Source: Deltaproteobacteria bacterium (GTDB lineage: Bacteria; Myxococcota_A; Polyangia; Nannocystales; Nannocystaceae). Taken from it: a stretch of 64,000 nucleotides of DNA. A model generated the notes under the pieces. It was given only the letters and a program-made list of their open reading frames with translations, was not told the origin of the DNA and ran no database searches. Position numbers and translations under genes: made by a program. Positions 17,344-22,874 of the stretch are shown here, in pieces. The DNA lies in assembly GCA_016709225.1 (NCBI GenBank), contig JADJEE010000012.1:2179630-2243629 (forward strand), written 5' to 3'. Every line of letters begins with the position of its first letter. Position 1 is the first letter of the stretch.

Positions 17344-18543
17344 CTACGGAGCCCCGAGCGCCCGGATCGCCGCGGTGACGCCGACGTCCTTCTCGCCCAC
17401 GACCGGCATGTCTCCGGTCAACGCGACCGCGACGTCGGGTGTCACGCCGCTGCCGTCGACCAGGCGATCGTCGGGCGAGTAGTAGCGCGCGATCGTGAAG
17501 GTCGCGACCGAGCCGTCGGGCAGGCCCATCACCTCCTGCACGGTGCCCTTGCCATAGCTGCGCTCACCGACGACGCGCGCACGCCCGCGATCTTGCAGCG
17601 CGGCCGCCAACAGCTCCGATGCCGACGCGCTGTGGCGGTCCTGCAGCACGACGATCGGCGTGGCGAGATCGGTGCCAGGGGCGTGTGCGGACTCCTCGCG
17701 CAGGATTCGCCCGCCACGTCCGCGGGTCCGCATCAACACCCCGTCGGCGACGAAGGTATCGGCGATGACCAGCGCCTCACCGACCTCGCCGCCGGGGTTG
17801 CCGCGCAGGTCGATCACGATGCCGGCGAGGTCCTTGCCGAGCGCGTGGCGTCGGGCCTCGATCGCGCGCTTGAACGCGTCGCCGCTCTCGGCCCCGAAGC
17901 GCCGCAGGACCACGTGCACGTAGCTGCGCCCAGCCTCGTCGCGCACGACCGCGGTCTCGAGCATCTTCGTGCTGGGGCGCGCCAGCACCAACTCGACCGC
18001 ACGGGGGCCGTTGCCGTCGACGGGCTGGACCAACAACGCGACCTCGTCGCCGATCGCACCGACCAGCAGGAGCTCGGCCTCGCGCTGCGACGCGAGCGCG
18101 TCGACGGACTTGCCGGCGATCTCGACCACCGCATCGCCCGGGCGTAGGCCCTCGCGCGCCGCCGGGGAGTCGGGCGCCACCGCCAGCACCTCGAGGCGAC
18201 GCGCTCGCGAAGCAGCTTCGGTGCGCATCGCGACTGCAAGCCCGGTCTCACCCGAGTGCTTGTGGCGGCGCAGCGCCTTGCGATCGGCGGCGCTCAGGAA
18301 GTGACTGTGGGGATCGAGCTCGCCCAACATCGCCGAAAGCCCCGCGGACAACAACGCGGCCTCGTCGACCGGCTCGTAGTAGCGGGAGAACACCGCCTCC
18401 ACCGCCTGGTCGAAGCCCGCACGATCCAGCCGCGGCGCCGATGCAGCCCGCAGACCGGGCTCCAGCGCCGCAGTTGCGACCAGGGTGCACACCACACCGA
18501 GCGCAAACCCCACGGCGCCGATTCGACGCTTCATCCCAACCAT
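17344..18543 (-). CDS. S41 family C-terminal processing peptidase with PDZ domain
   Basis: IVIDLRGNPGG block, PDZ (…GLRPGDAVVEIAGKSV…), catalytic region (…DRHSASASELLAAALQD…GERSYGKGTVQ). Signal peptide MVGMKRRIGAVGFALGVVCTLVATAAL. Second S41 paralogue in the window. Confidence 0.8.
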   Translation of the reverse strand: MVGMKRRIGAVGFALGVVCTLVATAALEPGLRAASAPRLDRAGFDQAVEAVFSRYYEPVDEAALLSAGLSAMLGELDPHSHFLSAADRKALRRHKHSGETGLAVAMRTEAASRARRLEVLAVAPDSPAAREGLRPGDAVVEIAGKSVDALASQREAELLLVGAIGDEVALLVQPVDGNGPRAVELVLARPSTKMLETAVVRDEAGRSYVHVVLRRFGAESGDAFKRAIEARRHALGKDLAGIVIDLRGNPGGEVGEALVIADTFVADGVLMRTRGRGGRILREESAHAPGTDLATPIVVLQDRHSASASELLAAALQDRGRARVVGERSYGKGTVQEVMGLPDGSVATFTIARYYSPDDRLVDGSGVTPDVAVALTGDMPVVGEKDVGVTAAIRALGAP

Positions 18544-18578: not shown

Positions 18579-20519
18579 ATGACACCCATCGAGAACATCC
18601 GCTCCGATCGTTCCATCGTCGCGCGTCCCCGCGGGCTCGCTCGCTTCGCGCCGCTCATGATGGTCGCGTCGCTGGCGATCGCGTGCAAGAAGGACGACGC
18701 CAAGCCCGCGGATGCCAAGGGCACCGAGAGCAAGGACGGCAAGGTCGCCGACGCCGACACCAAGGACGGCAAGGCACCCGACGCCAAGACGCCCGACGCC
18801 AAGGCGCCAACGCCGACGGGCGACGCGCCGGTGGTCGCGCCTTCGCTCACCCGCGGCGACGTGCTCGCGCACGTCATGTTCGCCAACCCGTCGGTGCTGC
18901 TCGGCGAGATCAAGACCCAGATCGTGCCCGAGTCGGCCGCGCAGTTCGTCGACGAGTCGTTCCTGCGCACGATGGGCGGCGGTGCGCTGGGCTCACGCAG
19001 CGCACTCGCGACCAACCTCGACCTCGCCAAGCCGATGGGCTGCGCGCTGGTCGACAGCACCACCACCAAGGCGCCGCTGGCCTGCGTGATCGGCTACACC
19101 GGTGGCTCGAAGCAGCTCGTCACCGACCTCGGTGAAGAGGGCAAGCAGACCGACGCGGGCTCGCACATCGCGAAGTACTCGGTGAACGGCCAGGACCTCT
19201 TCATCGACGACCTCGGCGGCGAGGTCATCGTCAGCAACGCCGACGAGCTGTTCGGCAAGGCCCGGAGCTACCTCGCGGACTCCATCATCGGGCGCGCCAG
19301 CGCCATGAAGACCGACGTCGAGATCGTCGCCTACCCGGCCGACCTCATGCGTCGCTACGACGCCGAGCTCCGTCCGGTGTTCGACGCCATGGCCAAGCCC
19401 CCGACGCTGCCGACCGGCGGCAGCGCGGGCGAGAAGTTCGCCGGCGCCATGGCCGAGTACGGCATGAAGTCGAACGAGCGCACGCTCAAGATGATGCAGG
19501 AGATGCAGCAGTTCTCGATGGCGATGTCGGTCGACGGCGCCGGCCTCGAGCTGACCTACGCGCTGCAGCCCACGCCCGGCACCGAGCTCGCGAAGCAGTA
19601 CGAGATCACCTCCGCCGGCCCGGTCGATGCCGCGTTCGTGTCGTCGCTGCCGCGCTCGAGCTGGGGCGTGATGGGCTTCAACGCGCACATGTCCGAGGCG
19701 CTCGACACCGGCCCCGTGAAGGAGCTCCGCAGCGCGCTCGTGAAGGGCTATGCCGAGGCACTCGGCAAGGATGCCGCGCAGACCGAGGCCGCACTCGTCG
19801 AGTTCGCCAACGAGGCCCGCGCGACCTACTCCGGTCACTCCGCACTGGCACTCATGCAGGAGCCCGGTAGCGTCGGTGCGCTCGCGGCCGTGTTCGGCCT
19901 CAAGGACGGCGTCAACGCCCGCGAGGCCTGGAAGACCTGGTCGGGTGGATTCACCGTCGAGTCGTTGCTCGGCGCCGACGCGGCCAAGAAGGTCACGTGG
20001 AGCTTCCAGTTCGACGCCGCGAAGGTCGGCGAGGTCGCCGTCGATCGCTGGGTCATCGAGCCCACCGACGAGGTGAAGGCCGAGATGCGCAAGGACGGCG
20101 GCGCCAAGCTGGCCGAGTGGGAGACCAAGCTCGGCGGCCTCAAGCTCGTCGTCAACCGCGTCGAGCGCGATGGCAAGGTCGCGTGGATCATCGGCTCGGC
20201 CGCCGACGAGGCCTCGACCAAGGCGGTCGTGGACGCGATGGCGGGCAGCGCCTCGCTGGCCGGTGATCCGGGCCTCGACAGCGCGCTCGCACGCACGCCG
20301 GGCGCGTCGGCCATCATGGCCCTCAACGTCAAGGGCATGCTCGCGTGGATCGCCACGCTCGCGCCACCCGAGGAGGCCGCGAAGATCCCGACGGGCATCG
20401 GCAGCGATCTGAACGACGTGGTCATCACGACCACGTACTCGCCGTCGGGTCCGCAGGTCGGCGAGATCGCGTTCTCGCAGAAGCTGGTCGACGGCGTCCG
20501 CGCGCTGGCGAACAAGTAG
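18579..20519 (+). CDS. Hypothetical lipoprotein (646 aa) with K/D/A-rich linker
   Basis: Start MTPIENIRSD…LMMVASLAIACKKDD (lipobox LAIAC), then a KDGKAPDAKTPDAKAPTP low-complexity linker and a large globular domain. Divergent from the S41 peptidase. Confidence 0.6.
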   Translation: MTPIENIRSDRSIVARPRGLARFAPLMMVASLAIACKKDDAKPADAKGTESKDGKVADADTKDGKAPDAKTPDAKAPTPTGDAPVVAPSLTRGDVLAHVMFANPSVLLGEIKTQIVPESAAQFVDESFLRTMGGGALGSRSALATNLDLAKPMGCALVDSTTTKAPLACVIGYTGGSKQLVTDLGEEGKQTDAGSHIAKYSVNGQDLFIDDLGGEVIVSNADELFGKARSYLADSIIGRASAMKTDVEIVAYPADLMRRYDAELRPVFDAMAKPPTLPTGGSAGEKFAGAMAEYGMKSNERTLKMMQEMQQFSMAMSVDGAGLELTYALQPTPGTELAKQYEITSAGPVDAAFVSSLPRSSWGVMGFNAHMSEALDTGPVKELRSALVKGYAEALGKDAAQTEAALVEFANEARATYSGHSALALMQEPGSVGALAAVFGLKDGVNAREAWKTWSGGFTVESLLGADAAKKVTWSFQFDAAKVGEVAVDRWVIEPTDEVKAEMRKDGGAKLAEWETKLGGLKLVVNRVERDGKVAWIIGSAADEASTKAVVDAMAGSASLAGDPGLDSALARTPGASAIMALNVKGMLAWIATLAPPEEAAKIPTGIGSDLNDVVITTTYSPSGPQVGEIAFSQKLVDGVRALANK

Positions 20520-20601: not shown

Positions 20602-20781
20602 TCACGCTGCGCGCTTGACCGCCACCGGCACGGTGCCGCTGGCGTCGTCGAGCGACCGACGGGCCCTGTCGAACAACCGCGCCTCGCGGACGCGCTGCAC
20701 CTCGTTCGCCATCGCCTCGGTCGTCACCGCATCGACGAAGCGCGACACGAAGGCGTAGTAGCGGATATTCGGAGCTTGCAT
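20602..20781 (-). CDS. Small hypothetical protein (59 aa)
   Basis: ATG preceded by GGGAGGAACGACC (strong RBS). MQAPNIRYYAFVSRFVDAVTTEAMANEVQRVREARLFDRARRSLDDASGTVPVAVKRAA. The rest of the 512-aa track ORF is Arg-rich junk. Confidence 0.4.
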   Translation of the reverse strand: MQAPNIRYYAFVSRFVDAVTTEAMANEVQRVREARLFDRARRSLDDASGTVPVAVKRAA

Positions 20782-21096
20782 GGTCGTTCCTCCCGTCCTG
20801 CCAAACCCAACGGAGCTCGGGTGCTGGCCTGACACCCGAACAACGAGTGCAGGCGCCGTACCATATCGAGGCACGTCCGATCGCGGTCCGGTGTTCCCGT
20901 CGATCGTCCCAGGGCGGGCCGCAGGGGTCGCGGCGGGGACCGTGGCCGATCGCCCGAAACGCGGCGCGACGGCCCGTGCTTTCGCGTAGTTCGGTCGGTC
21001 CGGTGCGATCCCCGAGCGGACGGGAACGGACCCGCGCGTGTCGAAGTTGTGGCCCCGCCCGCCAGATTGCCGACGGTGCAGCGTCGGAGTTCCATC

Positions 21097-22023
21097 ATGC
21101 GACACGTGGACGAGCCGCACACTGGTCGAATCGCGCGCAGCTGCGAGGCCTGCGGCGCGGTGGTGTCGCTGCCGGCGGAGCGGATCGCAGACCAATGTCC
21201 TTGGTGCGGATCGCGGCTCGTGGATGCCAGTGCCGCGGCCCACATCGATGCGGTGTGCCCCTTCGTCGTGTCCGAGCGGGCGGCGACGACACGGCTGCGC
21301 GAGCACGTCGCGGACGCGTTCTGGGCGCCCCGGGAGCTGCGGCAGCTGGCCCGCAGCGGGCAGCTGCGACCCGAGGCCCTGCGCGGTGTGCTGGTGCCGT
21401 ACTACGCGTTCGATGGCGTGACACAGTCGCGTTGGCAGGCCCGCATCGGGATCGATTGGTGGCGCACCGAGATGGTCCGCGACGAGCAGGGCCGGGCCCG
21501 CAAGCGACGGGTGCGTGAGACCGAGTGGCACGAGCTGCGGGGCACCGCAGTGGGTGAGTTCGTGGCGCAGCTGCAGTGCGGCTCGACCGCGCTGCGCGAG
21601 CACGAGATCGCGGGCCTGGGCCGTTTCGATCTCGGCACCGCGGTGGCCTTCGATCCGCGCGTGCTCGCCGGCTTCGCGGCCGAGCTGCCGGCGCTGCGGG
21701 CCGACGAGGTCGCCCACGCGGCGGTGACGGCCGCACGCGCCGCCGCCACGCGCCGCATCGAGACCGAGGTGCTCCCGGGCGAGCATCCGAGCCTCACATC
21801 GATTGCGACCGAGGTGCGCTTCGCCGCGCCCAAGCTCGCGCTGGTCCCGGTGTGGATCGCGAGCTATCGCCACCGCGGCCGCACGCATCGACTGCTGGTG
21901 CACGGCCAGTGCGGGCGCTGCGTCGGCCGGCCGCCAATCGATCGTGGCAAGGTGACGATCGCCGCGATGACGATCGCCGTGGTGGTGGTGGCGTGGCTGT
22001 GGCTGGCGGGGGTGTGGTCGTGA
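21097..22023 (+). CDS. Zinc-ribbon / C-terminal TM-anchor protein (paralogue A)
   Basis: N-terminal CxxC…CxxC ribbon (SCEACGAVVSLPAERIADQCPWCGS), central conserved region, C-terminal …RLLVHGQCGRCVGRPPIDRGKVTIAAMTIAVVVVAWLWL TM helix. Collinear similarity to the next gene. Confidence 0.55.
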   Translation: MRHVDEPHTGRIARSCEACGAVVSLPAERIADQCPWCGSRLVDASAAAHIDAVCPFVVSERAATTRLREHVADAFWAPRELRQLARSGQLRPEALRGVLVPYYAFDGVTQSRWQARIGIDWWRTEMVRDEQGRARKRRVRETEWHELRGTAVGEFVAQLQCGSTALREHEIAGLGRFDLGTAVAFDPRVLAGFAAELPALRADEVAHAAVTAARAAATRRIETEVLPGEHPSLTSIATEVRFAAPKLALVPVWIASYRHRGRTHRLLVHGQCGRCVGRPPIDRGKVTIAAMTIAVVVVAWLWLAGVWS

Positions 22024-22874
22024 TCGTCGTGCGTTGCGATGCATGCGGCGGCACGGTGACGTTCGATGCCGATCACGCGCGGGCACAGTGCCGCTTCTGC
22101 GCCGCGGTCGCGCTGGTCCCGGTGCCGCTCGACCGCCCACCGCCGCCGCCGCGTGAGGTCATCCCCTTCGCGATCGACGAGGCGCTGGCCCGGGAGCGCT
22201 TCGCGACGTGGACCCGCAGCTCGTGGTGGCATGCGCGGGACCTCGGCGCGGCGGTGGTGCAGCTGCGACCGCTGTGGTTGCCGGCGTGGCGGGCCCGTGC
22301 CGAGGTCGAGCTGCACTGGGCTGGCTTGGTGCGCGCCGACACCCGCAGCGGCCGACGCCCGCGCAGCGGCATCGATCGAGCGCCCGCGCAGGCCTTGGTG
22401 CCGGCCTCGCTGGGCATCTCGCAGCGCGAGCTCGACGCGCTCGGCGGCTTCTCGACCCGTCGGCGTCCGTGGCTCGACGACGACGCCGAGATCACGCGGG
22501 AGCTGCCCAATCTCAGCGAGGCGGGTGCGCGGGCGCAGATCCAACGGGCGCTGCAGGCTGAGCGGCTGCGCGAGGTCGCGGCACGCGAACACCTGCACGA
22601 TGCAGGCGCGACCGCACGCCTGCACGGCGTGGCGCTCGAGCTCGATGCACTGCCGATCTACATCGGCGCGTTCGCGTACCGCGGTCGGCCCTGGCGCATC
22701 GTCGTGCACGGCGAGTCCGGTCGCCTGGTCGGACGCGCACCGCTCGACCGTGTGAAGGTCACGATCGCGGTGGTGCTGGCCGCGATCGTGGCGCTCGCGG
22801 TGGCGCTGTGGCTCGAGCGGCGCGAGCCCGGCCCGCCCACGCCGAGCCCCGCGTCGGCGTCCGACCGCCGCTGA
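22020..22874 (+). CDS. Zinc-ribbon / C-terminal TM-anchor protein (paralogue B)
   Basis: GTG start overlapping the upstream stop (GTGA). RCDACGGTVTFDADHARAQCRFCAA ribbon; …RIVVHGESGRLVGRAPLDRVKVTIAVVLAAIVALAVALWL TM tail. Shares WRARIG/WRARAE and YYAFDG/YIGAF blocks with paralogue A. Confidence 0.55.
   Translation: MIVVRCDACGGTVTFDADHARAQCRFCAAVALVPVPLDRPPPPPREVIPFAIDEALARERFATWTRSSWWHARDLGAAVVQLRPLWLPAWRARAEVELHWAGLVRADTRSGRRPRSGIDRAPAQALVPASLGISQRELDALGGFSTRRRPWLDDDAEITRELPNLSEAGARAQIQRALQAERLREVAAREHLHDAGATARLHGVALELDALPIYIGAFAYRGRPWRIVVHGESGRLVGRAPLDRVKVTIAVVLAAIVALAVALWLERREPGPPTPSPASASDRR

Follow-up and report, generated by a model that had tools for sequence, protein, structure and literature searches.

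In Bacillus subtilis, the soluble SPFH protein YdjI (SamI) and PspA depend on two membrane components, YdjG (SamG) and YdjH (SamH), for their recruitment to the membrane (PMC8581546; bioRxiv 10.64898/2026.02.06.704340). YdjG binds YdjH in a bacterial two-hybrid assay, loss of either protein leads to shape defects under alkaline shock, and SamGH has been proposed to be a stress-signalling unit that SamI restrains (PMC8581546; bioRxiv 10.64898/2026.02.06.704340). The architecture of YdjG, with two tandem N-terminal zinc ribbons, has been described, and an NTF2-like or PepSY/YpeB-like fold was proposed for its core (PMC11237479). Here we analyse a 64,000-nucleotide stretch of a Deltaproteobacteria bacterium of the Nannocystaceae (assembly GCA_016709225.1, contig JADJEE010000012.1, positions 2,179,630 to 2,243,629 of the forward strand), hereafter the window, in which two overlapping genes, called A and B, encode paralogous relatives of YdjG that probably work together as one membrane-anchored complex.

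The YdjG sequence used for comparison came from metagenome contigs searched with a primer that PMC8581546 lists for cloning ydjG. The contig that matched (L031) carries pspA, ydjG (341 aa), ydjH with its TPM domain, and ydjI, which is the B. subtilis-type pspA-ydjGHI order; viral contigs scanned with the same primer gave no match. In BLASTP, YdjG matches A with E=2e-19, in an alignment running from ribbon 2 to the transmembrane (TM) helix, and B with E=3e-6. Aligned by hhalign to the joint A/B family profile, YdjG scores a probability of 100% (E=1.5e-40, 288 columns), at an identity to A and B of 20-24%. Because of these BLASTP and hhalign matches, A and B are assigned on sequence to the B. 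subtilis YdjG/SamG family. The preliminary description of this DNA had not recognised the architecture as a named family, a view that falls because published work already covers both the family and its architecture (PMC11237479, PMC8581546).

Gene A (21097..22023, plus strand, ATG start) encodes a protein of 308 aa in which a single zinc ribbon is followed by an alpha/beta core and, at the C-terminus, a TM anchor, and gene B (22020..22874, plus strand, GTG start) a more diverged YdjG/SamG paralogue of 284 aa with the same domain order. The MRHV start of A is also kept in two related loci (L002 and L008). That the two genes are tandem paralogues had been suggested beforehand and is real, since BLASTP aligns A and B with E=1e-14; the two proteins are 27% identical across a stretch of about 250 residues that begins at the zinc ribbon and ends at the TM helix. 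The same alignment does not bear out the pairing of a YYAFDG block with the YIGAF block of B, as the latter aligns with VWIASY in A.

Both ribbons have the spacing CxxC-x14-CxxC, shorter than the 17 to 20 intervening residues first reported. The cysteines are Cys16, 19, 34 and 37 in A (21142..21207, plus strand) and Cys6, 9, 24 and 27 in B (22035..22100, plus strand). All four are invariant in an alignment of 36 family members, and those of B are invariant across 13 orthologues; within the A clade and within the B clade, the ribbon ligands and the C-terminal motif are likewise invariant. A sequence search of the PDB with the family profile matched RpoP/Rpo12 and S27e zinc ribbons (E=1.3e-5) and nothing beyond the ribbon, and the Pfam zinc-ribbon match to A is sub-threshold (23.7 bits against a cut-off of 27). 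A and B each show the four-Cys, two-knuckle pattern of TFIIB/RpoP/S27e-like ribbons and putatively bind zinc.

At the other end, each protein has one hydrophobic segment, at its extreme C-terminus, in agreement with the single TM helix originally described. It spans residues 286-305 of A (21952..22011, plus strand), where it is the sole Kyte-Doolittle-19 window above 1.6, and residues 247-266 of B (22758..22817, plus strand). Net positive charge precedes the hydrophobic helix in both. A is predicted to be tail-anchored because just 3 residues follow its TM helix; the tail of B beyond the helix has 18 residues and is Pro-rich. The common C-terminal motif leading into the TM segment, which had also been picked out in the preliminary description, proved to be the best-conserved block in an alignment of the whole family (LLPVW...NGQTG.V.G..P.S..K), and the G-x-P-x-S/D-x-x-K motif followed by a single C-terminal TM segment, by which YdjG/SamG proteins can be recognised, is found in A and in B. 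Just ahead of the TM helix of A, Cys275 (21919..21921) lies within a G-x-C-V-G motif and is invariant in the A clade; neither B nor any other part of the family has an equivalent cysteine.

B. subtilis YdjG/SamG thus resembles A and B in having a zinc ribbon, an alpha/beta core, the conserved C-terminal motif, a C-terminal TM helix and the same predicted topology. It differs in that YdjG has two tandem ribbons whereas A and B have one apiece. In addition, ydjG is unpaired and has pspA, ydjH and ydjI on its flanks, the last encoding a Band_7_1 domain and a ribbon, whereas A and B form a putatively coupled paralogue pair with none of these three genes as neighbours.

The AlphaFold 2 (AF2) model of A is confident, with a mean predicted local distance difference test score (pLDDT) of 94.4 and a predicted template modelling score (pTM) of 0.84, and that of B is acceptable, with a mean pLDDT of 82.5. 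The same elements follow one another in the two models: the ribbon, two helices, a very long beta-hairpin, small helices, a long helix, a three-stranded sheet bearing the family motif, and the TM helix. In the model of A, short beta-strands surround the ribbon cysteines, a helix at residues 283-303 corresponds to the TM segment, and the hairpin is two-stranded and about 35 residues long; according to both the alignment and AF2, the central hairpin of B is about 25 residues shorter. No solved structural relative of the family core was found, the top Foldseek matches of the A model in the PDB being weak ones to beta-pore-forming toxins and secretins (E at least 0.1, probability at most 0.08, TM-score about 0.1). 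Against BFVD, the A model matched proteins of two giant viruses, Yasminevirus A0A5K0UBJ7 (E=3.7e-10) and Edafosvirus A0A3G4ZSZ8 (E=1.8e-7), both with a TM-score of about 0.55 over about 260 columns. These 'DnaJ-like subfamily C member 3' proteins share the predicted fold of A but are only 12-14% identical, larger, annotated as chaperone-type proteins and encoded by viruses of eukaryotic hosts. The structural matches suggest that the YdjG core fold may also occur alongside chaperone-type modules.

The family to which A and B belong is large. An exhaustive profile search found 11,382 clusters at 50% identity with E<=1e-3, and 3,355 with E<=1e-30. Among the best 150 representatives, 131 have the ribbon matched twice, and their length is about 360-380 aa. 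A and B lack the second tandem ribbon, which on sequence marks a single-ribbon subfamily; their homology to YdjG still stands. Word-indexed searches found about 40 relatives each for A and B, nearly all from metagenomes, Nannocystaceae or Myxococcota metagenome-assembled genomes (MAGs) and Paraliomyxa miuraensis, and also brought in distant members with two N-terminal ribbons. Where family proteins are named in public sources, they are called 'hypothetical' or 'RpoP/S27E'. Scans of A, B, the small open reading frame (ORF) S upstream of them and distant relatives against Pfam, NCBIfam, PADLOC and PHROGs returned sub-threshold zinc-ribbon matches only, and the copies of Pfam and NCBIfam searched contain no model of the family core. 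PF26832 ('Phage_gp86') is a precomputed entry for one member (P0039) and faint on two others; a local scan of P0039 did not return it.

Two further groups of relatives came to light. In one distant YdjG-like subfamily, the gene neighbours rplM(-rpsI), as at L003 5546..6930 and L037 1008..2368, and is always preceded by an ORF of about 105 aa with no Pfam match on record. In addition, eight matches from a phage collection (H1-H8, e.g. OR846590.1 123935..125011) are YdjG homologues with 22-34% identity. The records that hold them are unannotated and were deposited as Enterococcus or Listeria phages or as faecal 'Bacteriophage sp.'; they may be misfiled bacterial contigs.

What sets the Nannocystaceae genes apart from the rest of the family is their pairing. 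Conservation was assessed in 20 independent loci, made up of 17 genome loci from the B alignment together with L001, L002 and L038, the last being the locus of an outlying A-like protein (P0033). In all 20, an A orthologue lies directly upstream of a B orthologue, and the A-B order holds in every Nannocystaceae-type locus. In the window, the A stop codon and the B start codon overlap as GTGA at 22020..22023 (plus strand), as read from the sequence, and the gene coordinates, translations and overlap given in the preliminary description are correct. An NTGA stop/start overlap is present at 20/20 of the junctions: it is ATGA in L009, L012, L017, L021 and L038, TTGA in L015 and GTGA in most. The overlap is thus retained even though the start codon varies between GTG, ATG and TTG. 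In a neighbour-joining tree, A and B form one monophyletic clade each, and the branching within one clade mirrors that within the other. This pattern fits one old duplication followed by strict co-inheritance of A and B, and translational coupling of the two genes is plausible. The overlapping tandem arrangement first proposed for these genes is upheld by these data, and although the family is a known one, it is represented here not by a single gene without pairing but by a pair kept in 20/20 loci. In one Nannocystaceae MAG (L020 7001..7815), the B orthologue is frameshifted, giving two tblastn pieces and an ORF that ends after 164 aa; the split reflects either a pseudogene or a fault in the assembly.

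Tandem YdjG-like genes are also found outside this group. L004 (2945..8306) encodes a Ser/Thr protein kinase (1019 aa, with TPR), a two-ribbon YdjG-like protein (427 aa) and a second YdjG-like protein (341 aa, hhalign 99.2%). The three genes are joined by 4-nt overlaps, with the kinase gene upstream. By sequence, L004 represents a separate lineage with an independent, kinase-linked tandem YdjG-like pair.

The preliminary description had suggested that A and B form a heteromeric membrane complex, which is a reasonable reading because the NTGA overlap is conserved in every locus and the A and B trees are congruent. More specifically, A and B are probably YdjG/SamG paralogues that form a 1:1 heteromeric, tail-anchored cytoplasmic scaffold or sensor. 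Such a 1:1 heteromer is favoured because the overlap has been kept, co-inheritance is strict, the ribbon ligands are retained in both copies and each chain carries one ribbon instead of two. Under this scenario, an ancestral family member, most likely of the usual two-ribbon form, would have been duplicated once in the Nannocystaceae and their relatives, each copy now having one zinc ribbon and A and B having been inherited together since. The overlapping junction would favour equimolar synthesis of the two proteins. Each would have its N-terminus inside the cell, with a cytoplasmic zinc-ribbon and alpha/beta domain tethered to the inner membrane by the C-terminal TM helix, and the two single ribbons together may stand in for the canonical tandem ribbons. 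The putative heteromer would then serve as an anchored scaffold or sensor at the membrane and bring one or more cytoplasmic partner proteins there, for which the recruitment of the SPFH protein SamI and of PspA by SamG-SamH in B. subtilis offers a model. By analogy only, E. coli PspB and PspC are also two small co-transcribed inner-membrane proteins, proposed to be a joint membrane-stress sensor or anchor for a cytoplasmic effector (bioRxiv 10.64898/2026.02.06.704340). However, PspB and PspC have no sequence or fold relation to A and B, are not paralogues of each other and lack a zinc ribbon.

Several observations weigh against such a complex. AlphaFold 3 predicts SamG to be a monomer (bioRxiv 10.64898/2026.02.06.704340), so that neither self-association nor binding between paralogues is known for this family. 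B is far more diverged than A, as its weaker match to YdjG indicates; about 25 residues of its central hairpin are gone, and its role may differ from that of A. An operon overlap is by itself no proof of a complex. In addition, tblastn, phmmer and hidden Markov model searches of the window and of the regions flanking the related loci detected no homologue of PspA, of the TPM protein YdjH or of the Band_7_1 protein YdjI; the functional analogy with SamG therefore comes from homology alone.

Some of these points would equally suit two proteins that are co-expressed yet act separately, as monomers or homomers anchoring different cytoplasmic partners after subfunctionalisation, with the overlap serving for co-expression only. 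Besides the predicted monomeric state of SamG, the membrane protein known to be its partner, YdjH, is unrelated to it (bioRxiv 10.64898/2026.02.06.704340; PMC8581546), A and B are only 27% identical and differ in hairpin length and tail, and 4-nt overlaps are common in high-GC operons, as between the L004 kinase gene and its neighbour. However, the NTGA overlap has persisted in 20/20 loci despite changes of start codon, no locus has one paralogue alone, the A and B trees are congruent, and the second lineage represented by L004 likewise has a tandem YdjG-like pair. Separate action is on these grounds unlikely, if still a serious competitor to the heteromeric scaffold.

As to what such a scaffold would recruit, other members of the family offer a comparison. 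A Band_7_1 (YdjI/SamI-type) gene adjoins the two-ribbon members inspected in 4/5 contexts, the exception being L034, and one Bacillota member lies directly downstream of a gene encoding Band_7_1 and a zinc ribbon. The two-ribbon genes of L026, L032, L033 and L036, from Bacillota and other phyla, share the family profile, core and TM anchor with A and B; they are, in contrast, single-copy, encode about 360-410 aa and have the SPFH partner adjoining, whereas the Nannocystaceae pair has no local SPFH partner. About 8 kb from the pair, an 864-aa ORF (30741..33335, minus strand) matches the Pfam models MVP_shoulder (89 bits) and Vault_3 repeat (42 bits). The shoulder domain of the major vault protein is SPFH-like in fold. 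It is a speculative suggestion that this MVP-like protein is a candidate for the missing SPFH-type partner.

If no canonical partner is involved, A and B might be an obligate heterodimer that serves as a stand-alone sensor or adaptor for membrane stress, either acting without PspA, TPM and SPFH proteins or using a non-canonical partner, and built on a fold with no solved relative. This stronger version is advanced tentatively and is rather doubtful. If true, the fold would be one common to more than 11,000 bacterial clusters and, as judged by fold, to J-domain-annotated proteins of giant viruses, and the splitting of the ribbons between two subunits would provide a natural dissection of partner engagement.

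The remaining neighbours of the pair give no such lead. The local order is a gene for an S41-PDZ protease (17344..18543, minus strand), the adjoining gene for a 646-aa lipoprotein (18579..20519, plus strand; lipobox LAIAC, no Pfam domain), S, A, B and a prolyl oligopeptidase gene. This order, with the protease gene syntenic with S-A-B, is common to the closer relatives only, and local synteny yields no functional lead. In L006 and L020, an insertion of about 2.6 kb separates the lipoprotein gene from S.

S (20602..20781, minus strand) encodes a soluble 59-aa protein without Cys and is preceded by a ribosome-binding site (RBS), GGGAGG. In 8 loci, S is 55-61 aa long, and its N-terminus (M..P.LR[YF]YAFV[SA]RFVDAV), start, C-terminal AA before the stop codon and RBS are all conserved. 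A hidden Markov model of S matched nothing outside the closest clade among the related loci, a database of 5.8 billion proteins holds two clusters only, both at least 90% identical to S, and S has no Pfam, NCBIfam, PADLOC or PHROG match. By its conservation, S is a real gene and a lineage-specific divergent neighbour of the pair; the preliminary description had noted it, with a strong RBS, as flanking the pair, which holds for the closest clade only. S was rejected as a component of the system, since most loci with the pair lack it.

Between S and A lies a divergent intergenic region of 315 bp (20782..21096) that had been taken for a leader. This spacer has no Rfam match, folding of its plus strand is not unusually stable (z=-0.70), and an RNAalifold consensus (-3.4 kcal/mol) contains no covarying structure; a structured leader or riboswitch was accordingly rejected. 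No sigma-70-like promoter or terminator was matched in the spacer. It does hold a sigma-54-type promoter-like element on the minus strand (20848..20863), TGGTACG-N4-CTGCA (TGGTACGGCGCCTGCA), about 65 nt upstream of the S start codon. The TGGYACGNNNNYTGCW pattern has this one match in the window, with 0.10 expected. The spacer has a few invariant blocks, and the TGCA and CGTACCA cores of the element are invariant in 8 loci. The element appears to be a good match to a sigma-54 -24/-12 promoter pointing at S, and the most plausible reading of the spacer is a divergent promoter region.

This promoter bears on the idea that A and B are membrane-tethered nucleic-acid-binding or regulatory zinc-ribbon proteins, acting for example by holding back or freeing a transcription factor or by DNA or RNA binding at the membrane, rather than SPFH/PspA scaffolds. 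The conserved sigma-54 element adjoins the pair, the ribbons resemble RpoP, S27e and TFIIB types, the ribbon type of YdjG is known to bind DNA (PMC9239133), and L004 ties a family member to a Ser/Thr kinase. However, the promoter faces S, which most pair-carrying loci lack; as interaction modules, zinc ribbons are generic, and the Pfam matches here fall under the family cut-offs; neither A nor B has a helix-turn-helix or other DNA-binding domain; and the role documented by experiment in this family is membrane recruitment (PMC8581546). A function of this kind is improbable. Less credible still is a role in pore formation, as a toxin or in anti-phage defence, with the long beta-hairpin inserting into the membrane, since the two-stranded hairpin, the resemblance to toxins and secretins and the homologues in a few phage-deposited records are offset by Foldseek matches that are not significant, the lack of a PADLOC match for any of A, B and S, vertical co-inheritance within a stable synteny of housekeeping type, a hairpin that is charged rather than amphipathic, and 'phage' records that are unannotated fragments; this reading was rejected for want of a PADLOC match and of significant toxin or secretin matches.

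As a family, then, the relatives of YdjG have already been described. The single-ribbon, duplicated and putatively coupled variant of the Nannocystaceae and their relatives, uncoupled from PspA, YdjH and YdjI, appears not to have been. The scale of the family, and its lack of a core domain model or solved relative, may also be unreported, although the literature was not searched on this point. Proteins labelled 'hypothetical' or 'RpoP/S27E' are now gathered in one family. Nothing known is overturned by these findings. YdjG/SamG is among the least understood parts of the Gram-positive Psp/SPFH membrane-stress machinery, and the myxobacterial pair would represent a naturally split, single-ribbon, two-subunit version of it in which the linkage to PspA, YdjH and YdjI has been lost. 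The pair is thus a useful comparison for establishing what the core and the ribbons bind and whether the family acts outside the Psp context, and its value lies mainly in the natural dissection it may provide of a membrane-stress family that is both large and little understood.

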